A stretch of DNA of 64,000 nucleotides from Escherichia coli (GCF_044324785.1 NZ_CP172127.1), one strand, 5' to 3'. Shown: positions 1 to 44,172, numbered from the stretch's first letter. Program-made: numbers and translations. Notes: a model not told the origin generated them from the letters alone.

Positions 1-177
1 ATCGGCATGCACAAAAAAATCTTTAATCGTATTTCTTGTGTCATTAATTGTTTGATGTTCAGATTGTTTTCCTCGCGGGCTGGCGCGCCTCAGAAAGTAA
101 AGCTTGTTGACAGGGGTAAACGTTCGGCAATAATTTTCTGCCGCATGCGGGTGTTGCATAAAACGTGCTACGTTCCT

Positions 178-483
178 TTATCGACAGGTCAGGTCACCGC
201 TCACCCGCCGACGAGAAAGCAACACTGACATGCTAAAGCAAAAAATAGATGAATAAGTTGAGTTGTGCATATGTAGCCTGACCGTCACAAAGTATATGGT
301 GTCTGTACCAGTAAGATGATGGCCGGACTCTTTAAAAACGAGCTGACCTGCACAATACAGGATGGACTTAGCAATGGCTGCTCCTGGCACAAAGCGGACA
401 GTGATCACCGTTCTTACGACTACTTTCTGACTTCCTTCGTGACTTGCCCTAAGCATGTTGTAGTGCGATACTTGTAATGACAT
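178..483 (-). CDS. Hypothetical protein divergent from relB (possibly ydfV-like)
   Basis: 101-aa ORF in track, divergent from relBE; size matches my recollection of K-12 YdfV but sequence identity not verifiable. Confidence 0.3.
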   Translation of the reverse strand: MSLQVSHYNMLRASHEGSQKVVVRTVITVRFVPGAAIAKSILYCAGQLVFKESGHHLTGTDTIYFVTVRLHMHNSTYSSIFCFSMSVLLSRRRVSGDLTCR

Positions 484-495
484 TTGTAATTACAA
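444..495 (+). promoter_or_regulatory. relBE promoter/operator: -35 TTGCCC (444-449), 17-nt spacer, -10 GATACT (467-472), overlapping TTGTAAT/TTGTAATTACAA operator repeats (472-495)
   Basis: Sigma70-like hexamers with 17-bp spacing directly upstream of relB RBS; 12-bp palindrome TTGTAATTACAA at 484-495. Confidence 0.5.
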
Positions 496-507
496 GAGGT
501 GTAAGAC

Positions 508-747
508 ATGGGTAGCATTAACCTGCGTATTGACGATGAACTTAAAGCGCGTTCTTACGCCGCGCTTGAAAAAATGGGTGTAACTCCTTCTGAAGCGCTT
601 CGTCTCATGCTCGAGTATATCGCTGACAATGAACGCTTGCCGTTCAAACAGACACTCCTGAGTGATGAAGATGCTGAACTTGTGGAGATAGTGAAAGAAC
701 GGCTTCGTAATCCTAAGCCAGTACGTGTGACGCTGGATGAACTCTGA
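508..747 (+). CDS. relB: RelB antitoxin
   Basis: 79-aa ORF MGSINLRIDDELKARSYA... recognised as RelB; stop overlaps relE start (ATGA). Confidence 0.95.
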   Translation: MGSINLRIDDELKARSYAALEKMGVTPSEALRLMLEYIADNERLPFKQTLLSDEDAELVEIVKERLRNPKPVRVTLDEL

Positions 748-1034
748 TGGCGTATTTTCTGGATTTTGACGAGCGGGCACTAAAGGAATGGCGAAAGCTG
801 GGCTCGACGGTACGTGAACAGTTGAAAAAGAAGCTGGTTGAAGTACTTGAGTCACCCCGGATTGAAGCAAACAAGCTCCGTGGTATGCCTGATTGTTACA
901 AGATTAAGCTCCGGTCTTCAGGCTATCGCCTTGTATACCAGGTTATAGACGAGAAAGTTGTCGTTTTCGTGATTTCTGTTGGGAAAAGAGAACGCTCGGA
1001 AGTATATAGCGAGGCGGTCAAACGCATTCTCTGA
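747..1034 (+). CDS. relE: RelE mRNA interferase toxin
   Basis: 95-aa ORF MAYFLDFDERALKEWRKL... recognised as RelE. Confidence 0.95.
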   Translation: MAYFLDFDERALKEWRKLGSTVREQLKKKLVEVLESPRIEANKLRGMPDCYKIKLRSSGYRLVYQVIDEKVVVFVISVGKRERSEVYSEAVKRIL

Positions 1035-1105
1035 ACCAAAGCATGACATCTCTGTTTCGCACCGAAGGTGACACTTCTGCTTTGCGTTGACAGGAGAAGC
1101 AGGCT

Positions 1106-1261
1106 ATGAAGCAGCAAAAGGCGATGTTAATCGCCCTGATCGTCATCTGTTTAACCGTCATAGTGACGGCACTGGTAACGAGGAAAGACCTCTGCGAGGT
1201 ACGAATCCGAACCGGCCAGACGGAGGTCGCTGTCTTCACAGCTTACGAACCTGAGGAGTAA
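1106..1261 (+). CDS. hokD: Hok-family membrane toxin (51 aa), third gene of relBE operon
   Basis: Hand-translated (below 60-aa track cutoff): MKQQKAMLIALIVICLTVIVTALVTRKDLCEVRIRTGQTEVAVFTAYEPEE; Hok family single TM + C-terminal periplasmic tail. Confidence 0.85.
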   Translation: MKQQKAMLIALIVICLTVIVTALVTRKDLCEVRIRTGQTEVAVFTAYEPEE

Positions 1262-1331
1262 GAGACCCGGCGGGGGAGAAATCCCTCGCCACCTCTGATG
1301 TGGCAGGCATCCTCAACGCACCCGCACTTAA

Positions 1332-1356
1332 CCCGCTTCGGCGGGTTTTTGTTTTT
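1332..1356 (+). terminator. Intrinsic terminator after hokD
   Basis: Hairpin CCCGC-TTCG-GCGGG followed by TTTTTGTTTTT. Confidence 0.5.
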
Positions 1357-1477
1357 ATTTTCAACGCGTTTGAAGTTCTGGACGGTGCCGGAATAGAATC
1401 AAAAATACTTAAGTAGCGCGCAGGGATAAGAGGGATGGTCCCTTAAAGGGGAGAGCTAATTATCCGGAAGGATTCTG

Positions 1478-1729
1478 ATGATGAACATCGAAGAACTGCG
1501 TAAAATTTTTTGTGAAGATGGCCTCTATGCTGTGTGCGTTGAAAATGGAAATCTTGTTAGTCATTACCGCATTATGTGTTTGCGAAAGAATGGGGCTGCG
1601 TTAATTAATTTTGTGGATGCTCGGGTCACGGACGGATTTATCTTGCGCGAAGGTGAGTTTGTCACTTCATTACAGGCATTGAAAGAGATCGGAATAAAAG
1701 CTGGCTTTTCTGCTTTTTCAGGAGAATAA
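1478..1729 (+). CDS. rem: Rem (prophage protein of unknown function)
   Basis: 83-aa ORF MMNIEELRKIFCEDGLYAV...; position between hokD and ydfU as in Qin. Confidence 0.8.
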   Translation: MMNIEELRKIFCEDGLYAVCVENGNLVSHYRIMCLRKNGAALINFVDARVTDGFILREGEFVTSLQALKEIGIKAGFSAFSGE

Positions 1730-1795
1730 ACTCATCTACAATCTTGCGCGGGGCTGAACTCCCGCTGAGTAACACCGTGCCACCGGAGAAAACCG

Positions 1796-2074
1796 ATGGC
1801 ACGCAACGCAAAATATTACAATTCTGATAATTCGCCCGTTCTTGCCTGCACGCACGGGCGGTATTCTCACGCATTCAAGTCTGAATGGTTCCAGCACCCT
1901 CCATGCACTGCAGAACAGGCCGAATGGCTGATTCATTCTTACCGCAGGCGCGGGTTCGAGGTTAAGAAAGCTCTCAGTCTCGACTATCGGCACTGGATAA
2001 TCTCTGTCAGGCTGCCTTATTCCGAACGCCCACCACGTGCGTCCCGCACTTTCCAGCAACGGATCTGGAGGTAA
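1796..2074 (+). CDS. Hypothetical small protein (unassigned)
   Basis: 92-aa ORF, non-repetitive composition; overlaps ydfU start by ~38 nt in another frame; could also reflect a 5' extension/frameshift of ydfU. Confidence 0.3.
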   Translation: MARNAKYYNSDNSPVLACTHGRYSHAFKSEWFQHPPCTAEQAEWLIHSYRRRGFEVKKALSLDYRHWIISVRLPYSERPPRASRTFQQRIWR

Positions 2075-3125
2075 CGTGCGGGTATTACTTAGACCTGTTC
2101 TGGTGCCTGAGCTTGGGCTGGTGGTCCTTAAGCCGGGCCGTGAATCCATACAGATATTTCATAATCCTCGAGTGCTGGTGGAACCGGAACCAAAAAGCAT
2201 GCGTAATCTGCCATCCGGAGTCGTTCCTGCCGTTCGCCAGCCGCTGGCGGAAGACAAAACATTGCTGCCGTTTTTTAGTAACGAACGGGTGATTCGTGCT
2301 GCTGGCGGCGTTGGCGCATTGTCCGACTGGCTATTACGTCATGTTACATCCTGCCAGTGGCCTAATGGCGATTACCATCACACTGAAACAGTCATTCACC
2401 GTTATGGTACCGGCGCAATGGTGTTGTGCTGGCACTGCGACAACCAACTGCGTGACCAGACATCGGAATCACTGGAGCTGCTTGCTCAACAAAATCTGAC
2501 AGCATGGGTGATTGACGTCATCCGTCACGCAATAAGCGGTACGCAGGAGCGGGAATTATCTTTGGCTGAATTATCCTGGTGGGCGGTCTGCAATCAGGTG
2601 GTGGATGCACTACCTGAGGCTGTATCGCGTCGTTCGCTGGGATTACCAGCGGAAAAAATCTGCTCGGTGTACCGCGAAAGCGACATCGTACCGGGAGAGC
2701 AGACCGCCACCAGCATATTGAAACAACGCACAAAAAATCTTGCACCGTTGCCTTACGCCCACCAGCAACAAAAATCACCACAGGAAAAGACGGTGGTAAG
2801 CATCACCGTTGATCCAGAGTCTCCGGAATCTTTCATGAAGCTGCCTAAACGTCGCCGCTGGGTTAAGGAGAAATACACACGTTGGGTTAAGACACAGCCG
2901 TGTGCTTGCTGCGGTATGCCAGCCGACGATCCGCATCATCTGATTGGTCACGGGCAGGGCGGAATGGGAACAAAAGCACATGATCTCTTTGTGTTGCCTT
3001 TGTGCAGAAAGCATCACAACGAGCTGCATACGGATACAGTGGCATTTGAAGATAAGTATGGCTCCCAACTGGAGCTGATATTTCGTTTTATCGATCGCGC
3101 GCTGGCAATTGGCGTACTGGCGTAA
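2037..3125 (+). CDS. ydfU: YdfU-family protein (DUF968) with C-terminal HNH-like zinc motif
   Basis: 362-aa ORF; C-terminus CACCGMPADDPHHLIGHG...CRKHHNELH resembles HNH/Zn-finger; exact start uncertain (in-frame GTG ~2073 possible). Confidence 0.75.
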   Translation: MRPALSSNGSGGNVRVLLRPVLVPELGLVVLKPGRESIQIFHNPRVLVEPEPKSMRNLPSGVVPAVRQPLAEDKTLLPFFSNERVIRAAGGVGALSDWLLRHVTSCQWPNGDYHHTETVIHRYGTGAMVLCWHCDNQLRDQTSESLELLAQQNLTAWVIDVIRHAISGTQERELSLAELSWWAVCNQVVDALPEAVSRRSLGLPAEKICSVYRESDIVPGEQTATSILKQRTKNLAPLPYAHQQQKSPQEKTVVSITVDPESPESFMKLPKRRRWVKEKYTRWVKTQPCACCGMPADDPHHLIGHGQGGMGTKAHDLFVLPLCRKHHNELHTDTVAFEDKYGSQLELIFRFIDRALAIGVLA

Positions 3126-3138
3126 GTGGAGAACGAGC

Positions 3139-3891
3139 ATGAACCTTGAAGCCTTACCAAAATATTACTCCCCAAAATCTCCAAAATTGAGCGATGACGC
3201 TCCAGCGACAGGCACCGGTTGTTTAACAATTACGGATGTAATGGCAGCGCAGGGGATGGTGCAGTCGAAAGCACCACTTGGGTTGGCCTTATTTCTGGCA
3301 AAAGTTGGTGTTCAGGACCCCCAGTTTGCGATTGAAGGCCTGCTAAATTACGCGATGGCACTGGATAACCCGACATTGAACAAATTGAGTGAAGAAATCC
3401 GGTTACAGATTATTCCTTACCTCGTGAGTTTTGCCTTTGCTGATTACTCCAGGTCTGCGGCAAGTAAGGCTCGCTGTGAGCATTGTTCAGGTACGGGATT
3501 TTATAATGTATTGCGCGAAGTGGTGAAACACTACAGACGCGGGGAATCTGTAATCAAGGAAGAATGGGTGAAGGAACTATGTCAGCATTGCCATGGTAAG
3601 GGCGAAGCCAGCACAGCGTGCAGAGGGTGTAAGGGTAAAGGGATTGTTCTGGATGAAAAAAGAACCCGGTTTCATGGCGTACCGGTATATAAGATTTGTG
3701 GGCGTTGTAATGGAAACCGGTTTAGTCGTTTACCGACCACGCTGGCACGACGTCATGTCCAGAAGCTGGTACCAGACCTGACCGATTATCAGTGGTATAA
3801 GGGGTATGCGGACGTCATTGGTAAACTGGTAACAAAGTGCTGGCAGGAAGAAGCATACGCGGAAGCGCAATTGAGGAAGGTGACAAGATAA
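3139..3891 (+). CDS. quuQ: Late-gene antiterminator Q
   Basis: ORF 3109-3891; start placed at MNLEAL (250 aa); multiple CxxC zinc-finger pairs (CEHCSGTG, CQHCHGKG, CRGCKGKG, CGRCNG) typical of Q-family antiterminators. Confidence 0.85.
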   Translation: MNLEALPKYYSPKSPKLSDDAPATGTGCLTITDVMAAQGMVQSKAPLGLALFLAKVGVQDPQFAIEGLLNYAMALDNPTLNKLSEEIRLQIIPYLVSFAFADYSRSAASKARCEHCSGTGFYNVLREVVKHYRRGESVIKEEWVKELCQHCHGKGEASTACRGCKGKGIVLDEKRTRFHGVPVYKICGRCNGNRFSRLPTTLARRHVQKLVPDLTDYQWYKGYADVIGKLVTKCWQEEAYAEAQLRKVTR

Positions 3892-3922
3892 ATGATTTTT
3901 GCTGAAGATGGCGACATGATGT

Positions 3923-3951
3923 TTGCATTTTTCAAAAAATATGGATAAAAT
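3923..3951 (+). promoter_or_regulatory. Candidate late promoter (PR'-like): -35 TTGCAT, 17-nt spacer, -10 TAAAAT
   Basis: Near-consensus sigma70 hexamers ~30 nt downstream of Q stop and ~45 nt upstream of an intrinsic terminator, the lambdoid PR'/qut/tR' arrangement. Confidence 0.45.
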
Positions 3952-3996
3952 TTTTTCAACGATGGGCTTTGTATACCCGACGTTAAGAAAAAGTAG

Positions 3997-4026
3997 AAAA
4001 CCCGCTGATGAGCGGGTTTTGTGCTT
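3997..4026 (+). terminator. Intrinsic terminator downstream of Q (tR'-like)
   Basis: Hairpin CCCGCT-GATGA-GCGGG followed by TTTTGTGCTTT. Confidence 0.6.
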
Positions 4027-4312
4027 TAAATGGGGCAATGGTAATGTTGAATCTCATCCCGGGACTCATGTCTGTTAACTTATTATTTAGCTGGTGACTT
4101 GGTTATTTGCCTGATGTTTAAAATGTTTTCTTCCAGTACAATGTCCCTAAACACAATGAGTCTGCTTATTATATTATTAGCAGAGCTATTACGGCCAAAG
4201 TACAGCATAAGCTTTTAAAGCCAATCAACCAGTCATCAAGACAGACGGGGTTATTCATAAAAACTCTCCATGTGTGATCCGATGGGGCCTGAAATTAAAG
4301 CTTTAATATAGC

Positions 4313-4525: not shown

Positions 4526-4825
4526 AAAAATTCCTTAATACTGATAACTTGGCGCACTATACACACGTTCCTGAAGAAAGCTATAGTTTTTTGATGGGGT
4601 TGAAGATGGCTGGATGTCTAAAATAAACATTGCTTCATATGTTCAACTATGCGTTAATGATTGCGTCGGTTTGAAGAACAGACGATATACGAAGTAGTTT
4701 ACTAAAGCAGTTCTCATTTCAGGTGTTATTCACTTATTCCTTCTTTGAGTCTCTCCAATTAAGTACGAAGTCGTTTCTGTTATGCAAACCATTTATGCCG
4801 AAAGGCTCAAGTTAAGGAATGTAGA

Positions 4826-5041
4826 ATGTCAAATAAAATGACTGGTTTAGTAAAATGGTTTAACGCTGATAAAGGTTTCGGCTTTATTTCTCCTGTTGAT
4901 GGTAGTAAAGATGTGTTTGTGCATTTTTCTGCGATTCAGAATGATAATTATCGAACCTTATTTGAAGGTCAAAAGGTTACCTTCTCTATAGAGAGTGGTG
5001 CTAAAGGTCCTGCAGCAGCAAATGTCATCATTACTGATTAA
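4826..5041 (+). CDS. cspB: Cold-shock protein CspA family
   Basis: 71-aa [26 protein letters not shown]...; RNP1/RNP2 motifs; long AT-rich 5' leader. Confidence 0.95.
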
Positions 5042-5322
5042 AATTCATCGCTCGTCTGTATACGATAACGAAGAAGGCTGATGCCTGAGTAGAGATACGG
5101 ACAGAGTAGTGAATATTGGATCTCTTTAATAAAAAGTAAGGAGGTCCAATACATGAAACAATGGCTAGCATATTTGGCAAAATCTTAATCAGGAAAAGTA
5201 TGCTAACCATTGTGGTGAAGTGCAGGTTTGCTGCATGAATAGTTTTACAGCAGAAGCTAACTGCTGGCATGGCAAAACAAAGTGCGTAAGTGGATGACTC
5301 CCACAAAAAGCACCACAATCTC

Positions 5323-7350: not shown

Positions 7351-7713
7351 GGTAATATTAAATCGGAACATTTACATCGCGGAATGTAAAATTTAAATAA
7401 AAAGGACTCTTCCATGAGCCAAAATTCCTGAAATCTTAAGGGTAAGATAAAAGGTCTTAATCAGAATGACACGTTATTATTAATAAATAAAGCTATTCTT
7501 TCATTGCTGTGTTTTTCTTTACAAAAGTAATCCTTGCTATGGGTGGTTAATCATGCGTTAATGGTGTTCTGGTTTGTTACAAATTTATCTGAAGCAGTCA
7601 TTGTTATAATTTTATTATTTGTACCTCTTGAGATTTCCTTGTTGGTTTTTCTCTCTGATATTTTTTTTCGGACCATTCTGCCCAAGGGCTAATTTCTTCA
7701 AAAGGTAATAATT

Positions 7714-7926
7714 ATGTCTAACAAAATGACTGGTTTAGTGAAATGGTTTAACCCTGAAAAAGGTTTTGGTTTCATCACGCCGAAAGATGGCAGCAAAGAT
7801 GTGTTTGTCCATTTCTCAGCAATTCAGAGCAACGATTTCAAAACATTAACTGAGAATCAGGAAGTTGAATTTGGTATTGAGAACGGACCTAAAGGTCCTG
7901 CCGCTGTTCATGTAGTGGCGCTTTGA
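7714..7926 (+). CDS. cspI: Cold-shock protein CspA family
   Basis: 70-aa [26 protein letters not shown]...; long 5' leader. Confidence 0.95.
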
Positions 7927-8014
7927 GGTAGACAATATTACAAACCATATTCACTTTAGATGCCCGTGTTGTCATGGTTCCCAGTATAGAACATCATCTT
8001 TTGATGTTTCTGAC

Positions 8015-25344: not shown

Positions 25345-28300
25345 ATGGGTAAAGGAAGCAGTAAGGGGCATACCCCGCGCGAAGCGAAGGACAACCTGAA
25401 GTCCACGCAGTTGCTGAGTGTGATTGATGCCATCAGTGAAGGGCCGATTGAAGGTCCGGTGGATGGATTAAAAAGCGTGCTGCTGAACAGTACGCCGGTG
25501 CTGGACAGTGATGGGAATACCAACATCGCCGGTGTCACGGTGGTGTTCCGGGCTGGTGAGCAGGAGCAGACTCCGCCGGAGGGATTTGAATCCTCCGGCT
25601 CCGAGACGGTGTTGGGTACGGAAGTGAAATACGACACGCCGATCACCCGCGCCATCACGTCGGCAAACATCGACCGACTGCGCTTTACCTTCGGTGTGCA
25701 GGCACTGGTGGAAACCACCTCAAAGGGGGACCGGAATCCGTCGGAAGTTCGCCTGCTGGTTCAGATACAGCGTAATGGTGGCTGGGTGACGGAAAAAGAC
25801 ATCACCATTAAGGGCAAAACCACCTCGCAGTATCTGGCCTCGGTGGTGGTGGATAACCTGCCGCCGCGCCCGTTTAATATCCGGATGCGCAGAATGACGC
25901 CGGACAGCACCACAGACCAGCTGCAGAACAAAACGCTCTGGTCGTCATACACCGAAATCATCGATGTGAAACAGTGCTACCCGAACACGGCACTGGTCGG
26001 CGTGCAGGTGGACTCGGAACAGTTCGGCAGCCAGCAGGTGAGCCGTAATTATCATCTTCGCGGGCGCATTCTGCAGGTGCCGTCGAACTATAACCCGCAG
26101 ACGCGGCAATACAGCGGTATCTGGGACGGAACGTTTAAGCCAGCATACAGCAACAACATGGCCTGGTGTCTGTGGGATATGCTGACCCATCCGCGCTACG
26201 GCATGGGGAAGCGTCTCGGTGCGGCGGATGTGGACAAATGGGCGCTGTATGTCATCGGCCAGAATTGCGACCAGTCGGTGCCGGATGGCTTTGGTGGCAC
26301 GGAGCCGCGCATCACCTGTAATGCCTGGCTGACCACACAGCGCAAGGCGTGGGATGTTCTCAGTGATTTCTGCTCGGCGATGCGCTGTATGCCGGTATGG
26401 AACGGGCAGACGCTGACGTTCGTGCAGGACCGACCGTCGGATAAGGTGTGGACCTATAACTGCAGTAATGTGGTGATGCCGGATGATGGCGCGCCGTTCC
26501 GCTACAGCTTCAGTGCCCTGAAGGACCGTCATAATGCCGTTGAGGTGAACTGGATTGACCCGGATAACGGCTGGGAGACGGCGACAGAGCTTGTTGAAGA
26601 TACGCAGGCCATTCTCCGTTACGGTCGTAACGTCACGAAGATGGATGCCTTTGGCTGTACCAGCCGGGGGCAGGCGCACCGCGCCGGGCTGTGGTTGATT
26701 AAAACGGAACTACTGGAAACGCAGACCGTGGACTTCAGCGTGGGGGCGGAAGGGCTTCGCCATGTGCCGGGCGATGTCATTGAAATCTGCGATGATGACT
26801 ATGCGGGGATCAGCACCGGCGGGCGCGTGCTGGCGGTGAACAGCCAGACCCGGACGCTGACGCTCGACCGTGAAATCACGCTGCCATCCTCCGGTACCAC
26901 GCTGATAAGCCTGGTTGACGGAAGTGGCAATCCGGTCAGCGTGGAGGTCCAGTCCGTCACCGACGGCGTGAAGGTAAAAGTGAGCCGTGTTCCTGACGGC
27001 GTTGCCGGATACAGCGTATGGGGGCTGAAGCTGCCGACGCTGCGCCAGCGCCTGTTCCGCTGCGTGAGTATCCGTGAGAACGACGACGGCACGTATGCCA
27101 TCACCGCCGTGCAGCATGTACCGGAAAAAGAAGCTATCGTGGATAACGGGGCGCACTTTGACGGCGACCAGAGCGGCACGGTGAATGGTGTCACGCCGCC
27201 AGCAGTGCAGCACCTGACTGCCGAAGTCACCGCAGACAGCGGGGAGTATCAGGTACTGGCCCGCTGGGACACGCCGAAGGTGGTGAAGGGCGTGAGTTTC
27301 ATGCTTCGCCTGACCGTAACAGCGGATGACGGCAGTGAGCGGCTGGTCAGCACGGCCCGGACGACGGAAACCACTTACCGCTTCACACAACTGGCTCTGG
27401 GGAACTACAGGCTGACAGTCCGGGCAGTAAATGCGTGGGGGCAGCAGGGCGATCCGGCGTCGGTATCGTTCCGGATTGCCGCACCGGCAGCGCCGTCGCG
27501 GATTGAGCTGACGCCGGGCTATTTTCAGATAACCGCCACGCCGCATCTTGCGGTTTATGATCCGACGGTACAGTTTGAGTTCTGGTTCTCGGAAAAGCGG
27601 ATTGCGGATATCAGGCAGGTTGAAACCAGCGCGCGTTATCTTGGTACGGCACTGTACTGGATAGCCGCCAGTATCAATATCAAACCGGGCCATGATTATT
27701 ATTTTTACGTTCGCAGTGTGAACACCGTTGGCAAATCGGCATTCGTGGAGGCTGTCGGTCAGCCGAGTGATGATGCATCAGGCTATCTGGATTTTTTCAA
27801 AGGCGAGATAGGGAAAACCCATCTGGCTCAGGAGCTGTGGACGCAGATTGATAACGGTCAGCTTGCGCCTGACCTGACTGAAATCAGGACGTCCATAACG
27901 GATGTCAGCAATGAAATAACACAGACCGTCAATAAGAAACTGGAAGACCAGAGTGCAGCGATCCAGCAGATACAGAAGGTTCAGGTTGATACAAATAATA
28001 ACCTGAACAGCATGTGGGCAGTGAAGCTGCAGCAGATGCAGGACGGACGCCTTTATATTGCGGGTATCGGTGCCGGTATTGAGAACACCCCTGACGGCAT
28101 GCAGAGTCAGGTGCTGCTGGCGGCGGACAGGATTGCGATGATTAATCCTGCAAATGGCAACACAAAACCGATGTTTGTTGGTCAGGGTGATCAGATATTC
28201 ATGAATGACGTGTTCCTGAAACGCCTGACGGCTCCCACCATTACCAGCGGTGGAAATCCGCCGGCATTTTCCCTGACACCGGACGGAAAGCTGACCGCTA

Positions 28301-28842
28301 AAAATGCGGATATCAGTGGCAGTGTGAATGCGAACGCCGGGACGCTCAACAATGTCACGGTAAATGAAAACTGTACGATTAAGGGCATGCTGGAGGCGAC
28401 TCAGGTCAGAGGTGACTTCGTTAAAGCTGTATCCAAATCATTCCCGAAACAGGCTGGTACGTGGGGTAATACGGAAACACCAAACGGGACGGTTACAGTC
28501 ACCATCAGCGATGATCATAACTTTGACCGTCAAATCATTATTCCGCCCATTATCTTTAACGGAATAGCGTATAGCGATCCGGGAAGTGGTAATAACCCGG
28601 GAGGTACAAGATACACGGGTTATGGTTTTGAAGTTCGCAAAAACGGCGTATTAATCGCATCCAGAGAAACTAAAGGGGCCATTCCCGGTAGTTACAGTGC
28701 AGTTATTGATATGCCGAGTGGCAGGGGAAGCGTCACTCTGGAGTTTAAGATTTTCCAGAAAGGCAATCAGGGGGCAGGCAATATCACCGACTGTACGGTG
28801 ATTGTGACCAAAAAAGCCGCTTCCGGCATCAGTATTCGTTGA
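25345..28842 (+). CDS. J: Central tail fiber / host specificity protein gpJ
   Basis: 1165-aa ORF; N-terminal and central regions lambda J-like; C-terminal region appears divergent. Confidence 0.95.
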
Positions 28843-28863
28843 AATATTTATAACCCCAATAAA

Positions 28864-28889
28864 GGGCGTCAGGAATGACGCCTTTTTTA
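28864..28889 (+). terminator. Intrinsic terminator after J
   Basis: Hairpin GGGCGTCA-GGAA-TGACGCCT followed by T-run. Confidence 0.5.
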
Positions 28890-28912
28890 TTGCAGAAAAG
28901 CGAGAGGTAATT

Positions 28913-29512
28913 ATGCGTAAAGTTTGTGCAGCAATTTTGTCCGCAGCCATTTGTCTGGCCGTATCCGGTGCGCCTGCATGGGCGTCTGAACATCAGTCCA
29001 CGCTGAGCGCGGGGTATCTTCATGCCTCGACGAACGTCCCCGGCAGTGATGATCTGAACGGGATTAACGTGAAATACCGTTATGAGTTTACGGACACACT
29101 GGGGCTGGTGACGTCATTCAGCTATGCAGGAGACAAGAATCGCCAGCTGACCCGTTACAGCGATACCCGCTGGCATGAAGATTCCGTTCGTAACCGCTGG
29201 TTCAGCGTAATGGCGGGGCCGTCTGTGCGCGTGAATGAATGGTTCAGCGCGTATGCGATGGCGGGTGTGGCTTACAGCCGTGTGTCGACTTTCTCCGGGG
29301 ATTATCTTCGCGTAACTGACAACAAGGGGAAAAAGCACGATGTGCTGACCGGAAGTGATGACGGTCGCCACAGCAACACGTCTCTGGCGTGGGGGGCTGG
29401 CGTGCAGTTTAACCCGACCGAATCCGTGGCCATTGATATTGCTTATGAAGGCTCCGGCAGTGGTGACTGGCGCACTGACGGTTTCATCGTGGGTGTCGGT
29501 TATAAATTCTGA
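28913..29512 (+). CDS. lom: Lom/Ail/PagC-family outer-membrane beta-barrel protein
   Basis: 199 aa with signal peptide; conserved C-terminus ...DIAYEGSGSGDWRTDGFIVGVGYKF. Confidence 0.9.
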   Translation: MRKVCAAILSAAICLAVSGAPAWASEHQSTLSAGYLHASTNVPGSDDLNGINVKYRYEFTDTLGLVTSFSYAGDKNRQLTRYSDTRWHEDSVRNRWFSVMAGPSVRVNEWFSAYAMAGVAYSRVSTFSGDYLRVTDNKGKKHDVLTGSDDGRHSNTSLAWGAGVQFNPTESVAIDIAYEGSGSGDWRTDGFIVGVGYKF

Positions 29513-29538
29513 TTAGCCAGGTAACACAGTGTTATGAC

Positions 29539-29566
29539 AGCCCGCCGGTTCAGGTGGGCTTTTTTG
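29539..29566 (+). terminator. Possible intrinsic terminator after lom
   Basis: Imperfect hairpin AGCCCGCC...GGTGGGCT followed by TTTTTTG. Confidence 0.4.
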
Positions 29567-29576
29567 TGGGGTGAAT

Positions 29577-32405
29577 ATGGCAGTAAAGATTTCAGGTGTA
29601 CTGAAAGACGGCACAGGAAAACCGGTACAGAACTGCACAATCCAGCTGAAAGCAAAACGTAACAGCACCACGGTGGTGGTAAACACGCTGGCCTCAGAAA
29701 ATCCGGATGAAGCCGGGCGTTACAGCATGGACGTTGAGTACGGGCAGTACAGCGTTATTCTGTTGGTGGAGGGATTCCCGCCGTCACATGCCGGGACCAT
29801 CACCGTGTATGAAGATTCCCGACCCGGTACGCTGAATGATTTTCTCGGTGCCATGACGGAGGATGATGCCCGTCCTGAGGCACTGCGCCGTTTTGAACTG
29901 ATGGTGGAAGAGGTGGCGCGTAACGCGTCCGCGGTGGCACAGAACACGGCAGCCGCGAAGAAGTCAGCCAGCGATGCCGGCACATCAGCACGTGAGGCGG
30001 CAACCCATGCGACTGATGCTGCAGGCTCAGCACGCGCAGCCAGCACGTCAGCCGGACAGGCCGCGTCGTCGGCTCAGTCAGCATCTTCCAGCGCAGGAAC
30101 GGCATCAACAAAGGCCAGTGAAGCATCGAAAAGTGCTGCTGCTGCAGAGTCCTCAAAAAGCGCGGCAGCTACCAGTGCCGCTGCGGCGAAAACGTCAGAA
30201 ACGAATGCGGCAGCGTCACAACAATCAGCAGCCACTTCTGCATCCGCCGCGACCACGAAGGCGTCAGAAGCTGCCACCTCAGCCCGGGATGCGGCGGCCT
30301 CAAAAGAGGCGGCAAAATCATCAGAAACGAGCGCAGCCTCGAGCGCCAGTAGTGCAGCCTCCTCGGCAACAGCGGCAGGAAATTCCGCGAAGGCGGCAAA
30401 AACGTCCGAGACGAACGCTAAGTCTTCTGAGACGGCAGCAGCACAGAGTGCCTCCGCAGCAGCAGACTCAAAAACAGCGGCTGCCTCATCTGCCAGCGCC
30501 GCGTCAACAAATGCCGGGCAGGCCTCAGCCAGTGCCACCGCCGCCGGAAAATCGGCAGAAAGTGCTGCATCGTCCGCTTCAACAGCCACAACGAAGGCTG
30601 GCGAAGCCGCTGTACAGGCCAGCGCAGCAGCGAGGTCTGCTTCCGCAGCGAAGACATCCGAGACGAACGCGAAAGCGTCGGAAACCAGCGCAGAATCCTC
30701 AAAAACGGCTGCCGCATCGTCCGCCAGTTCGGCGGCGTCATCGGCATCATCTGCGTCTGCTTCAAAAGATGAGGCGACCAGACAAGCGTCCGCAGCGAAG
30801 GGCAGCGCCACGACAGCATCCACGAAGGCGACAGAGGCAGCTGGCAGTGCGACGGCGGCAGCACAGAGCAAAAGTACGGCGGAATCCGCGGCAACGCGCG
30901 CCGAGACAGCGGCAAAACGGGCAGAGGATATTGCATCCGCCGTGGCGCTTGAGGATGCGAGCACGACGAAAAAGGGGATAGTACAGCTCAGCAGTGCGAC
31001 CAACAGCACTTCCGAGTCACAGGCGGCAACGCCAAAAGCCGTTAAGGCCGCGTATGACCTGGCTAACGGGAAATACACCGCACAGGACGCTACGACAGCA
31101 CAAAAAGGAATTGTCCAGCTCAGTAGTGCAACCAACAGCACATCTGAAACGCTTGCTGCGACACCGAAAGCAGTGAAAGCAGCTAATGACAATGCGAATG
31201 GTCGGGTACCTTCTGCCCGTAAGGTGAATGGTAAGGCGCTTTCAGCGGATATAACACTGACGCCGAAAGATATTGGTACGCTTAACTCAACAACAATGTC
31301 ATTCAGCGGTGGTACTGGTTGGTTCAAATTAGCAACGGTAACCATGCCACAGGCGAGTTCTGTTGTTTCAATTACGTTGATTGGTGGCGCTGGATTTAAC
31401 GTGGGGTCACCTCAACAGGCAGGTATATCTGAACTTGTTTTACGTGCAGGTAATGGTAATCCGAAGGGGATTACTGGTGCTTTATGGCAGCGCACATCGA
31501 CAGGGTTTACAAATTTTGCCTGGGTCAATACATCTGGTGATACTTACGATATTTACGTTGCAATCGGAAATTATGCGACTGGTGTAAATATTCAATGGGA
31601 TTATACCAGTAATGCCAGCGTGACGATTCATACGTCACCAGCATATTCTGCTAATAAGCCGGAAGGGTTAACGGACGGTACAGTTTATTCACTCTATACG
31701 CCATCAGAGCAGTTTTATCCGCCTGGCGCACCAATCCCGTGGCCATCAGATACCGTTCCGTCTGGCTATGCCCTGATGCAGGGGCAGACTTTTGACAAAT
31801 CTGCATACCCGAAACTTGCAGCCGCTTATCCGTCAGGCGTGATCCCTGATATGCGTGGCTGGACGATTAAGGGCAAACCTGCCAGTGGTCGGGCCGTATT
31901 GTCTCAGGAACAGGACGGCATTAAATCGCATACCCACAGCGCCAGCGCATCCAGTACGGATTTGGGGACGAAAACCACATCGTCGTTTGATTACGGCACT
32001 AAATCCACGAATAACACTGGTGCGCATACCCATAGTTTAAGTGGCAGCACGAATGCAGCTGGTAATCACAGCCATAGAGATGGCCGTCGATTTAACCCCA
32101 GTGTTTTTAAAGATACTTATCAATATGGTTATACAAGCTCAGGTCAAAATACCTGGGGTGTACAAGGCTCAGTAGGTATGTCTACGGGGTGGTTAGCGAA
32201 TACCAGTACAGATGGTAATCATAGCCATTCACTGTCCGGCACAGCAGCATCTGCAGGTGCACACGCGCATACTGTCGGTATTGGTGCTCATACGCACTCC
32301 GTTGCGATTGGTTCACATGGACACACCATCACCGTTAACGCTGCTGGTAACGCGGAAAACACCGTCAAAAACATCGCATTTAACTATATTGTGAGGCTTG
32401 CATAA
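29577..32405 (+). CDS. stf: Side tail fiber protein Stf
   Basis: ORF 29571-32405; start at [12 protein letters not shown]; Ala/Ser-rich repeat block, duplicated phage tail-fiber repeat ([15 protein letters not shown]...[10 protein letters not shown]), His-rich HxH C-terminal motifs. Confidence 0.9.
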
Positions 32406-32980
32406 TGGCATTCAGAATGAGTGAACAACCACGGACCATAAAAATTTATAATCTGCTGGCCGGAACTAATGAATTTATTGGTGAAGGTGACGCATATATT
32501 CCGCCTCATACAGGTCTGCCAGCAAACAGTACCGATATTGCACCACCAGATATTCCTGCTGGCTTTGTGGCTGTTTTCAACAGTGATAAGGCATCGTGGC
32601 ATCTCGTTGAAGACCATCGGGGTAAAACGGTTTATGACGTAGCGTCAGGGGACGCGTTATTTATTTCTGAACTCGGTCCGTTACCGGAAAATGTTACCTG
32701 GTTATCGCCGGAAGGGGAGTTTCAGAAGTGGAACGGCACAGCCTGGGTGAAAGATGCAGAAGCAGAAAAACTGTTCCGGATCCGAGAGGCGGAAGAAACA
32801 AAAAACAGCCTGATGCAGGTAGCCAGTGAGCATATTGCGCCACTTCAGGATGCTGTAGATCTGGAAATCGCAACGGAGGAAGAAACCTCATTGCTGGAAG
32901 CCTGGAAAAAGTATCGGGTGTTGCTGAACCGTGTTGATACGTCAACTGCACAGGATATTGAATGGCCAGCACTGCCGTAG
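32405..32980 (+). CDS. tfa: Tail fiber assembly protein Tfa
   Basis: 191 aa [24 protein letters not shown]...; ATG overlaps stf stop (TAATG). Confidence 0.9.
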
Positions 32981-33077
32981 GGTAAAACATATAAATTCTA
33001 TAATTAGATGTATCTTTCCATTTACGGCAAGGAAGGGGGCTTGGAAGACGTAAAGCATCTCACACCGAGATTATTTT

Positions 33078-33668
33078 TTATATGTCAGGTGTCTGAAGTT
33101 TTGCTTTGGCTCTTAAAATGGTTTGCCGCGAGGTTTTGAATTCCCGGGCAATGGCACTTATACTTACACCTGACTTAATTCGTTCGAATACCACCTGTTT
33201 CTGTTCTTCATTTAACACAGGTGGTCGACCAAAACGTTTCCCTGCGCCGCGGGCTCTTACTATCCCGGAATGAGTGCGTTCAAGTAAAAGGTCTCGTTCA
33301 AATTCAGCGACTGCTGAAATTACGTGCATCATCATTTTTCCTGTTGGACTGGTCAGGTCAATGCCCCCCAATGCTAAGCAATGCACTCTGATACCTGTTT
33401 CGGTCAGTTGTTCCACTGTTTTCCTGATATCCATTGCATTACAACCAAGGCGATCCAGTTTTGTCACAATCAATTGATCACCACATTTCAGGCGAGCAAG
33501 CAACCGGTTAAAACCAGGACGCTCACTGGTTGCTGCTGAGCCGCTAATGTGTTCTTCGATTATTTGCTGAGGTTTGATTTTAAAACCTGCACTTTCGATT
33601 TCCCGGCGTTGATTTTCGATGGTCTGATCCAGCGTTGATATCCGACAGTAAGCAAAAATTCGAGACAT
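33078..33668 (-). CDS. pin: Pin/Gin/Hin-family serine DNA invertase
   Basis: 196 aa [20 protein letters not shown]... with catalytic Ser in the N-terminal motif and C-terminal HTH. Confidence 0.9.
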
Positions 33669-33984
33669 AGTGAGACTCTATACGAAATTGGTGTTCATAT
33701 CATAATGCATCTCAGAAAATAATTTTGATTATTTTTGTGCATATTTGTATGTACACGTTCGAAAATAAACGAATGCGTATGCAACCCCGTAATTTTGGTG
33801 AGACCCAAAATCGATTTTGTGAAAAATGGCTTTAACTCGGTTTGTTTTTCGAGTTCCGGGCGGACTCAAGGAAGAAGAATAGTGTTGCGTGTTATTTTAA
33901 CCAGATTTCAAGTTGTTTGGTCGTGGAAAAGTGGAGCAAAATGTTGTTAAAGTGGAAAAATGATAAAAAAGTAAGTTTATTATA

Positions 33985-34218
33985 TTACATTTTACCATTT
34001 AAATTTTGGTTGTCTTTAAGAACTGATATCGCTGTTTGTAATAATTCTTTGTTATCCAGCCATGATTTTTTCTTTATGTTTCCTTCAATGTAATCAAGCA
34101 ATGTTCTGGTATTGATAGGTCTTCCCTGTTTTGCTACTTCCACTACAGCATCCCCTAGGATAATTCTTACTTCAGGAAGCTGCGCAGGGAACCACTTTAG
34201 GGTGTCTTTTGATTTCAT
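33985..34218 (-). CDS. ydfK: YdfK/YnaE-family prophage protein
   Basis: ORF 33985-34251; start at MKSKDTLKWFPAQLPEV (77 aa). Confidence 0.75.
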   Translation of the reverse strand: MKSKDTLKWFPAQLPEVRIILGDAVVEVAKQGRPINTRTLLDYIEGNIKKKSWLDNKELLQTAISVLKDNQNLNGKM

Positions 34219-35003
34219 GAAGATATTCCTTAAAATATTATTGAGTTTCATTGCGATATTGTATGTCTGATTCAGGATATGTTGACTTATACATCGGTTT
34301 TGTCTGGGTTATTGGATATGCCAATCCCTAATTTTATTAGGGCATGACTAAAAATGCTGAATATGATAAGGAGAGAAGTGATTATCAGTATGCTGTTCAT
34401 ATAGCCTCGAATTAGTAATGTGTTATATATGATATAGTTGACAATTTTTATCTTGGGTGTTCTTAAAGTTCGTAGATAAACATTGTCGTTTCAGGTATAC
34501 AGGAATGCTAACAGGTGGCAGCAAAAATCAGGCGGTTTATGGCGCAAGCTGAAGCGGCAACTGCAAACTATCTTATGCAGAGACTCTACACGGATTGGGT
34601 TTAAAAGTATACATAGATAACAGTTTTTATCTGAAAAAGAAAAATATCAAGGTGATATAGCCTATATGCCTTTGATGCGGAGGAATGAATGTGATGGGAG
34701 TGATGTATCTGAATAGTTGAAAAACCGCAGACACGCCTTATGCAAGAACGTGCTGCGGTTGGCTGGTAAATTTTTCGATAGTGTGAGTATTGAATGATTT
34801 CCAGCCGTTCTTGATTTTACGCATAAATCCATGAAAAAACTACTTATCTGTTGGGGAGTTTTTTTGGGGCATATATGGGACAGAAATAGGCCCCAGATAG
34901 ACACTGAGATCGAACTTAGGATGCTTTTTAAAAAATGCAACTATCTGAAAAAACCTAGAAAACGCCAAGGAAACCACAGGATGGGAAAAAACACCTGTGA
35001 ATT

Positions 35004-36287
35004 ATGGATTTCCAGTTATATTCGCTCGGCGCAGCGTTAGTGTTTCATGAAATATTTTTTCCTGAATCATCAACGGCAATGGCGTTAATTCTGGCAATGG
35101 GAACCTACGGTGCAGGTTATGTGGCACGTATTGTCGGAGCATTTATTTTCGGCAAAATGGGCGACAGAATCGGGCGTAAAAAAGTGCTCTTTATTACCAT
35201 CACCATGATGGGGATCTGTACCACCTTAATTGGTGTGCTGCCGACCTATGCACAAATTGGTGTGTTTGCGCCAATTTTGCTGGTGACGCTGCGTATTATT
35301 CAGGGGCTGGGGGCAGGCGCGGAAATTTCCGGTGCCGGCACGATGCTGGCGGAATATGCACCAAAAGGTAAGCGCGGAATTATCTCCTCATTTGTTGCTA
35401 TGGGGACTAACTGCGGAACCTTGAGCGCAACGGCAATCTGGGCCTTTATGTTCTTCATTCTCAGTAAAGAGGAACTGCTGGCGTGGGGATGGCGTATACC
35501 GTTCCTGGCGAGCGTTGTCGTGATGGTCTTTGCTATCTGGTTGCGTATGAATCTGAAAGAAAGCCCGGTCTTTGAGAAGGTTAACGACAGCAACCAACCG
35601 ACAGCAAAACCTGCACCTGCTGGTAGCATGTTCCAGAGCAAATCCTTCTGGCTGGCAACAGGGCTGCGTTTTGGTCAGGCGGGTAACTCAGGTTTAATTC
35701 AGACTTTCCTTGCAGGCTATTTAGTGCAGACGTTATTGTTTAACAAAGCAATTCCAACAGATGCATTGATGATCAGTTCGATTCTCGGCTTTATGACCAT
35801 TCCGTTCCTTGGTTGGTTATCCGATAAAATTGGTCGCCGGATCCCGTATATTATTATGAATACCTCCGCGATTGTGCTGGCATGGCCAATGCTTTCTATC
35901 ATCGTAGATAAAAGCTATGCCCCGAGCACCATTATGGTTGCACTGATTGTGATTCATAACTGTGCGGTGCTGGGATTATTTGCTCTGGAAAACATTACCA
36001 TGGCAGAAATGTTCGGCTGTAAAAACCGCTTTACCCGGATGGCTATTTCTAAAGAAATTGGTGGTCTTATCGCTTCCGGTTTTGGTCCTATCCTGGCGGG
36101 TATTTTCTGCACCATGACGGAATCCTGGTATCCGATCGCCATTATGATCATGGCATATTCAGTGATTGGTTTAATCTCTGCGCTGAAAATGCCAGAGGTG
36201 AAAGACCGTGATTTAAGTGCGCTGGAAGACGCTGCGGAAGATCAACCGCGTGTTGTAAGAGCTGCGCAACCTTCCAGAAGTCTGTAA
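35004..36287 (+). CDS. ydfJ: MFS transporter (metabolite:H+ symporter family), apparently lacking the normal N-terminus
   Basis: 427-aa ORF MDFQLYSLGAALVFHEIFFPESS...; aligns from the conserved WYDF motif onward of MHS transporters; in-frame stop immediately upstream. Confidence 0.85.
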   Translation: MDFQLYSLGAALVFHEIFFPESSTAMALILAMGTYGAGYVARIVGAFIFGKMGDRIGRKKVLFITITMMGICTTLIGVLPTYAQIGVFAPILLVTLRIIQGLGAGAEISGAGTMLAEYAPKGKRGIISSFVAMGTNCGTLSATAIWAFMFFILSKEELLAWGWRIPFLASVVVMVFAIWLRMNLKESPVFEKVNDSNQPTAKPAPAGSMFQSKSFWLATGLRFGQAGNSGLIQTFLAGYLVQTLLFNKAIPTDALMISSILGFMTIPFLGWLSDKIGRRIPYIIMNTSAIVLAWPMLSIIVDKSYAPSTIMVALIVIHNCAVLGLFALENITMAEMFGCKNRFTRMAISKEIGGLIASGFGPILAGIFCTMTESWYPIAIMIMAYSVIGLISALKMPEVKDRDLSALEDAAEDQPRVVRAAQPSRSL

Positions 36288-43858: not shown

Positions 43859-43975
43859 GCTCCGTTTAACATTCATTGAGAAAACTGATGCTACTGTGTC
43901 AACGATCCGTTATCAGTGCAGGAAAATGCCTGTTAGCGTAAAAGCAAAACACAAATCTATCCATGCAAGCATTCA

Positions 43976-44001
43976 CCGCCGGTTTACTGGCGGTTTTTTT
44001 T
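43976..44001 (+). terminator. Intrinsic terminator (plus strand) in dgcZ-mgtS intergenic region
   Basis: Hairpin CCGCCGG-TTTA-CTGGCGG followed by T8. Confidence 0.55.
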
Positions 44002-44007
44002 CGCCGT

Positions 44008-44049
44008 CATAAAAATCAGGCCCCTTGTACACAACTGTAACAAGGGGCC
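44008..44049 (-). terminator. Intrinsic terminator for mgtS (minus strand)
   Basis: 10-bp stem GGCCCCTTGT/ACAAGGGGCC followed on the minus strand by TGATTTTTAT. Confidence 0.55.
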
Positions 44050-44076
44050 GGTTAGGTGAGGGATTATCTCCGTTCA

Positions 44077-44172
44077 TTAGTCATCCCATTTGTGGCTGAA
44101 ATACGCGGCCAGAAAACCAGAAAATAAAATTATTCCCAGTACGGCCATAAAAACATTCATATTACCCAGCAT
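44077..44172 (-). CDS. mgtS: MgtS (YneM) 31-aa inner-membrane small protein
   Basis: Hand-translated MLGNMNVFMAVLGIILFSGFLAAYFSHKWDD; SD GGAGG upstream; below track cutoff. Confidence 0.8.
   Translation of the reverse strand: MLGNMNVFMAVLGIILFSGFLAAYFSHKWDD

Follow-up and report, generated by a model that had tools for sequence, protein, structure and literature searches.

The stretch from 29577 to 32405 on the plus strand of a 64,000-nucleotide window of Escherichia coli DNA (GCF_044324785.1 NZ_CP172127.1; the window denotes the whole stretch that was analysed) carries, with a probability of about 90% judging by sequence comparison, the intact lambda-type side tail fibre gene stf of a lambdoid prophage that occupies the Qin locus. 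The long Ala/Ser-rich block of its product is best read as a register-preserving coiled coil of conserved length and not as a slippage hotspot, while the length differences of the family are concentrated at other sites of the fibre.

The stf gene and its locus

The open reading frame of stf spans 29577-32405 and encodes 942 aa from its ATG without an internal stop (ORF list), and the region from 29980 to 32330 which the earlier note had assigned to stf lies within this single plus-strand frame. An in-frame GTG lies at 29571, and both the RefSeq relatives and PDB entry 9e7m begin with the ATG (29577, MAVKISG). The product belongs to PHROG 295 (tail fibre protein, E 3.3e-237), and Pfam recognises PF08400, PF03406 (two matches), PF07484 and PF03335 (Phage_fiber) in it. 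The 942-codon frame is uninterrupted and directly followed on its 3' side by tfa, the start of which overlaps the stop codon of stf, and the earlier description of the gene as long and intact holds. The gene and its neighbours are arranged as follows.

25345-28842: J, upstream of lom and stf (ORF list)
28913-29512: lom, upstream of stf (Ail_Lom Pfam match, E 9.9e-123)
29577-32405, plus strand: stf, tail fibre gene
32405-32980, plus strand: tfa, tail fibre assembly chaperone (PF02413 Caudo_TAP, E 3.1e-44; PHROG 105)
33078-33668, minus strand: pin, serine invertase (PF00239 and HTH_7), 98 nt downstream of tfa
35004-36287: ydfJ, beyond pin, with ydfK-like genes in between

The order J-lom-stf-tfa-pin, beside ydfK and ydfJ, recurs in relatives, which are annotated alike, and the upstream 25 kb are filled by head and tail ORFs of normal size. 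Lambdoid prophages at the Qin (ydfJ) locus of E. coli are laid out in this way.

K-12 harbours a defective Qin prophage at the same chromosomal site, and lambda lost its Stf in the laboratory and stayed viable. Both facts would suit a reading in which stf is the unused relic of a cryptic prophage, kept intact by chance or owing to its recent arrival, and gives rise to no functional fibre. This is nonetheless an unlikely account of a 942-codon frame devoid of stops that is accompanied by intact tfa, J and lom genes and preceded by large ORFs making up a complete head and tail complement. Moreover, family alleles whose DNA has diverged by up to 11% retain the length of the Ala/Ser block and the seven HxH motifs of the tip, which argues for purifying selection. 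On the other hand, the Qin and Rac relatives in K-12 are defective, and an intact ORF is thus no proof that the fibre is used.

Several additional elements were noticed around the gene. A strong terminator-like hairpin with eight pairs, six of which are G-C, and a T run after it lies between lom and stf on the plus strand (29539-29560), 17 nt upstream of the stf ATG; transcription into stf would probably require read-through or antitermination. A match to Rfam IS009, a candidate RNA gene, scores 226.7 bits at 32748-32946 on the plus strand and is situated wholly in the 3' half of tfa. Matches at 4665-5057, 7568-7953 and 43870-44083 comprise two cspA-type thermoregulator leaders in the early prophage region, with cold-shock paralogues as in Qin, and the Hfq-binding sRNA STnc560 in the chromosomal flank.

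Domain organization of the fibre

The Stf protein is composed of the following parts, from the tail-proximal to the distal end.

29577-29978, plus strand: tail-attachment domain (StfN) and linker (PF08400 phage_tail_N, E 1.2e-71)
29886-30956, plus strand: Ala/Ser-rich shaft of 51 heptads, predicted trimeric coiled coil (heptad layout, periodicity, alignment to lambda)
30972-31103, plus strand: Phage_fiber_2 unit 1, 44 aa (PF03406; an exact DNA chimera of units 1 and 2 of relatives)
31104-31235, plus strand: Phage_fiber_2 unit 2 (PF03406)
31182-31727, plus strand: middle module, exchangeable and with the fold of an all-beta sandwich, the "knob" (core modelled well at about 31272-31691)
31674-32402, plus strand: T4 gp37-type receptor-binding tip with collar, needle and head (phmmer against PDB 2XGF, E 3.7e-85)
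31725-31868, plus strand: phage tail collar domain, start of the gp37-like tip (PF07484, E 5.9e-12)
32076-32219, plus strand: variable distal segment between HxH 3 and HxH 4, 48 aa (presumed receptor-contacting head)

In a search of solved structures, residues 3-96 matched the collar domain of Ur-lambda Stf (9e7m/9mgh, E 1.4e-51), and in Ur-lambda StfN constitutes the collar on the tail tip (PMC12617516). The fibre of Ur-lambda, modelled in 2025 by cryo-EM/cryo-ET together with AlphaFold3, has its parts in the same order, with StfN (1-91), a linker, a proximal trimeric coiled coil (102-393), a hinge, a distal domain and a gp37-like receptor-binding domain that binds OmpC (PMC12617516).

The Ala/Ser-rich block is a register-constrained shaft

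The Ala/Ser block comprises residues 106-462 (numbered from the GTG), encoded by 1071 nt, and consists of 38% Ala, 23% Ser and 11% Thr. The KTSETNA-type units pointed out in the earlier note are indeed present, with exact KTSETNA at aa 207, 277 and 361. The block is more than plain low complexity, being made up of 51 consecutive, unbroken heptads (x-x-A-x-x-S-A) that run without skip or stutter. One heptad position holds Ala in 47 of the 51 heptads and a further one in 35, Ser fills another in 36, and the period-3.5 signal of Ala reaches z = 44 against shuffled sequences. Apart from a segment of 15 heptads that is missing in lambda, no gap interrupts the alignment of the block with the proximal coiled coil of Ur-lambda Stf. 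At the level of sequence the features of a coiled-coil shaft are thus in place, and its trimeric state is predicted from the periodicity and from the lambda Stf model. If fully coiled, the 51 heptads would extend over about 53 nm, compared to about 37 nm for the 36 heptads of lambda (0.1485 nm per residue).

The earlier note had taken the block to be evidently prone to changes in length through slippage or recombination. As regards slippage, this is not borne out by the DNA, which is non-repetitive and near-constant in length among relatives. Tandem Repeats Finder, applied to 28000-35000, detected no tandem array in the block and returned two trivial 9-nt rows only. Direct repeats in the block DNA are 60-82% identical and spaced in multiples of 21 nt, and the longest exact repeat measures 14 nt, with codon-shuffled controls giving a mean of 12.1 and a maximum of 18. 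It is therefore only in the protein, as heptads, that the block is repetitive.

The length of the block was followed both in DNA and in protein. A query of 1095 nt that spans the block found matches in 4343 E. coli records, and in 3604 of these the match extended over 80% or more of its length. An even sample of 60 rows down the ranking of the 4343 records yielded 48 full-length matches. Each of the 48 was a single piece; in 47 it ran gapless over exactly 1095 nt, in the remaining one it measured 1094 nt, and identities ranged from 88.6 to 100%. At the protein level, the comparison set consisted of 121 sequences, namely 120 cluster representatives and the Stf of the window. Block length is the same in 106 of them, and the remaining 15 fall short of it by 14, 15, 16, 20, 21 or 22 heptads and always by an exact multiple of seven residues; the block of Ur-lambda, for instance, is short by exactly 15 heptads. 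All seven length classes thus correspond to whole heptads, and none is only one or a few heptads away from 51. Such large, whole-heptad differences suggest rare recombination events under a constraint on register instead of slippage. Invariance of repeat number, which the earlier note had named as a finding that would speak against it, is accordingly nearly true for the Ala/Ser block, though false for the fibre repeat discussed below.

These data also bear on the view that the block is a hypervariable repeat of the contingency type, by which fibre length would be tuned between strains. The threefold occurrence of KTSETNA, the degenerate DNA repeats at multiples of 21 nt and the existence of shorter blocks of 29-37 heptads in the family, including the 36 of lambda, are what such a view would lead one to expect. 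It is, however, highly improbable in light of the missing tandem DNA array and of a longest exact repeat that does not exceed codon-shuffle expectation, and also because 47 of the 48 sampled matches retain exactly 1095 nt (1094 nt in the other) despite divergence of up to 11%, and 106 of the 121 proteins are equal in length with no variants of one or a few heptads. Hence, the Ala/Ser block represents a length-conserved, register-constrained shaft, the rare changes of which are large and in phase. A more far-reaching proposal, that the 51-heptad coiled coil serves as a length-calibrated ruler whose exact length is strongly selected in E. coli lambdoid prophages, free of indels over at least 11% of DNA divergence and with natural variants tolerated only as deletions of whole heptads, is offered tentatively as a possibility on the weaker side of even.

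Two long ORFs overlie the block, one at 29974-30981 on the plus strand (335 aa) and one at 30074-31345 on the minus strand (423 aa). Both were rejected as genes and probably owe their length to the GC-rich Ala and Ser codons of the well-supported stf CDS. In a RefSeq phage-plasmid record, an opposite-strand ORF of a homologous block is annotated as a hypothetical protein (locus L010 3499-4182).

Variation in the number of fibre units

Adjacent to the shaft, the duplicated fibre repeat of the earlier note was recovered as two copies of the same 25-letter protein sequence at nt 30972 and 31104. These mark units that share a 15-letter beginning, lie 44 aa apart and are matched twice by Pfam PF03406, Phage_fiber_2 (E 1.6e-37), which also substantiates the identification of the duplicated unit as a tail-fibre repeat. 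Within the window, units 1 and 2 exhibit 58% DNA identity and use different codons at 21 of their 29 shared residues; they are old copies and poor partners for recombination.

The nearest relatives (07-4299, IAI1 and others; locus L001 4007-6967) possess an stf gene that is 132 nt longer and contains three units. Once a single 132-nt unit is removed from it, the 07-4299/IAI1-type allele and the stf of the window differ at one nucleotide only, located at 31314 and resulting in Thr in the window and Ala in the relatives (residue 580). The Stf of the window is therefore separated from a common allele by a single repeat unit and a single residue. Moreover, where units 1 and 2 of the relatives differ, unit 1 of the window has the letters of the former at positions 3, 12 and 30 and those of the latter at positions 117, 120 and 132, which places the crossover within an 86-nt stretch that is identical between the two. 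Units 1 and 2 of the relatives show six differences from each other, compared to a single one between the alleles over the remainder of the gene, which makes the loss of one unit in the lineage of the window much more probable than recent duplication in the relatives. A search for the exact Stf protein of the window found no identical sequence in a collection of 15 billion sequences.

The stf allele described here is hence either the product of a very recent deletion by unequal recombination or the result of an assembly collapse. According to the latter explanation, two 132-nt tandem units of 95% identity were merged during assembly and the real gene has three units, as in the nearest relatives. 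Unit 1 of the window is exactly the hybrid that a collapse would make, 1 nt is all that distinguishes the remainder of the gene from the three-unit allele, and the absence of the exact protein from the 15-billion-sequence collection points in the same direction. A hybrid of this kind is, however, equally expected from a real and recurrent deletion, because any crossover in the 86-nt identical stretch gives the same product, and the identical hybrid unit does occur in two-unit alleles of several complete genomes, among them strain A2 and the matches H101, H102, H104 and H106-H108. An assembly artefact is thus improbable, and a genuine loss of one unit by unequal recombination is preferred.

Exchange of the middle module

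For residues ~536-717, which make up the middle module, a Pfam search gave no match; among 1.84 billion representative proteins, 778 relatives were found, all of them in proteins of tail-fibre size. AlphaFold2 prediction from the single sequence was too weak to be used (pLDDT 59.6), while an alignment of 27 sequences raised the pLDDT to 84.3.

When eight alleles were aligned, residues 1-465 proved gapless in all seven E. coli prophage alleles, and the length differences fell in three places, namely the number of Phage_fiber_2 units (1, 2 or 3), the middle region and a loop of the tip. The middle region between fibre units and collar domain is replaced wholesale among alleles. Length variation as anticipated in the earlier note is thus a property of the family, at the fibre units, the middle modules and the tip loop, though not of the Ala/Ser block to which that note had attributed it.

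Strain L3452210II (locus L009 3201-6962) has an Stf shaft that is annotated as a truncated pseudogene and reaches to about heptad 25, followed by a separate fibre gene for a "pyocin knob domain-containing S74 family peptidase". This looks like another distal fibre grafted onto the same N-terminal shaft.

The gp37-type tip

The C-terminal 243 aa (aa 702-944) form the tip, in which 159 of 228 aligned residues (70%) are identical to T4 gp37, rising to 151 of 194 (78%) outside the distal loop. The four HxH motifs listed in the earlier note belong to a series of seven, at nt 31929, 32025, 32067, 32220, 32262, 32289 and 32316, each of which aligns column for column with one of the seven motifs of gp37. 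The likeness to T-even fibre tips that had been proposed from these motifs thereby proves to be direct homology to 2XGF (E 3.7e-85, 7/7 motifs aligned). In gp37, according to PMC11705849, which cites the T4 structure, seven iron ions are held by paired HxH histidines, and by homology the HxH motifs of the present tip would coordinate metal as well.

In contrast, the distal segment between HxH 3 and HxH 4 shares only 8 of 34 aligned residues with gp37. Other alleles of this segment are present in K-12 StfR, FDAARGOS_1291 and lambda, and as the tip loop of the window is unlike those of lambda, T4 and K-12 StfR, its receptor may differ.

The neighbouring serine invertase

A further conceivable source of variation is inversion of the C-terminal part of the fibre by Pin, which would switch host range as in the Mu G, P1 C and e14 P systems. 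The position of pin, 98 nt past tfa and on the opposite strand, is suggestive in this respect. Nevertheless, no significant inverted repeat is found within 29500-33800, no gix/pix-like site occurs anywhere in the window with three mismatches allowed, and there is no second, inverted set of fibre tip and tfa between tfa and pin, which leaves such switching with hardly any credibility. Instead, pin looks like an orphan invertase with no recognisable crossover site or invertible segment nearby, comparable to pinQ and pinR of K-12.

Proposed mechanism of assembly and adsorption

In Ur-lambda, Stf forms four trimeric fibres on virions and speeds adsorption (PMC12617516). By homology, three chains of the present Stf would trimerise into one fibre, helped by Tfa as a folding and assembly chaperone, and the N-terminal domain of ~91 aa would dock at the tail tip as part of the collar. 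A short linker would then lead into the 51-heptad trimeric coiled coil and the two Phage_fiber_2 units, which together would make up the proximal shaft that sets the reach of the fibre, while the beta-sandwich knob and the collar domain would lead into the T4 gp37-type needle. Along the threefold axis, each of the seven HxH motifs per chain would hold a metal ion, which in T4 is iron, and the needle, stapled by these metals, would present the loop between HxH 3 and HxH 4 as the receptor-contacting head. By means of the fibre, the phage would adsorb quickly and reversibly to a surface receptor ahead of the binding of J to a receptor of its own; for lambda and T4, the receptors are OmpC or LPS.

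Diversity in the family arises from the exchange of whole modules, from gain or loss of 44-aa units by unequal recombination and from rare in-register deletions of whole heptads, and replication slippage in the Ala/Ser block does not contribute.

Comparison with known systems

Ur-lambda Stf (774 aa; N-terminal domain 9e7m/9mgh) shares with the Stf of the window the position of its gene, the N-terminal collar domain, the Ala/Ser shaft, the fibre unit, the collar domain and HxH needle of the tip, a C-terminus that ends in the same 12-letter sequence and the tfa partner. In contrast to lambda, the shaft of the window is 15 heptads (105 aa, ~16 nm) longer, two fibre units are present instead of one, a beta-sandwich middle module takes the place of another hinge and distal segment, seven HxH motifs are found instead of eight, and the tip loop is different.

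The tip of T4 gp37 (2XGF) has the collar domain in common with the present fibre, as well as the need for a chaperone, which is gp38 in T4 and Tfa here. Its distal loop comprises 34 aa compared to 48 aa in the window, with 8 identities. Upstream of the tip the two proteins are unrelated, gp37 being a myovirus distal half-fibre without an StfN domain or coiled-coil shaft.

K-12 StfR of the Rac prophage (1120 aa) and the Stf of IAI1/07-4299 type (986 aa) align to the window without gaps over residues 1-465. StfR differs by its single fibre unit, a much larger middle region and another tip loop, while the IAI1-type protein has three fibre units and not two.

The stf family, its mosaic exchange between phages, gp37 homology, HxH iron sites and the coiled-coil shaft are already known from the literature. 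The heptad-quantised length classes and the one-unit deletion are small observations and not discoveries; quantisation in heptads across alleles finds no mention in the literature cited here. For the fibre junction motifs MDETNR, GAGENS, ADAKKS and SASAAA, a separate literature search yielded nothing of relevance.

Significance for the fibre family

The hot spots of variation in this family are the number of 44-aa units, the middle module and the tip loop, which is of relevance to fibre engineering as well as to the prediction of host range. In addition, the recent loss of one unit would constitute a clean natural case of unequal recombination inside a tail fibre. If the ruler proposal is true, shaft length and the number of fibre units (1-3) would be discrete, selectable settings of fibre reach, adjusted for instance to the central J fibre or to how deep the O-antigen or capsule is.
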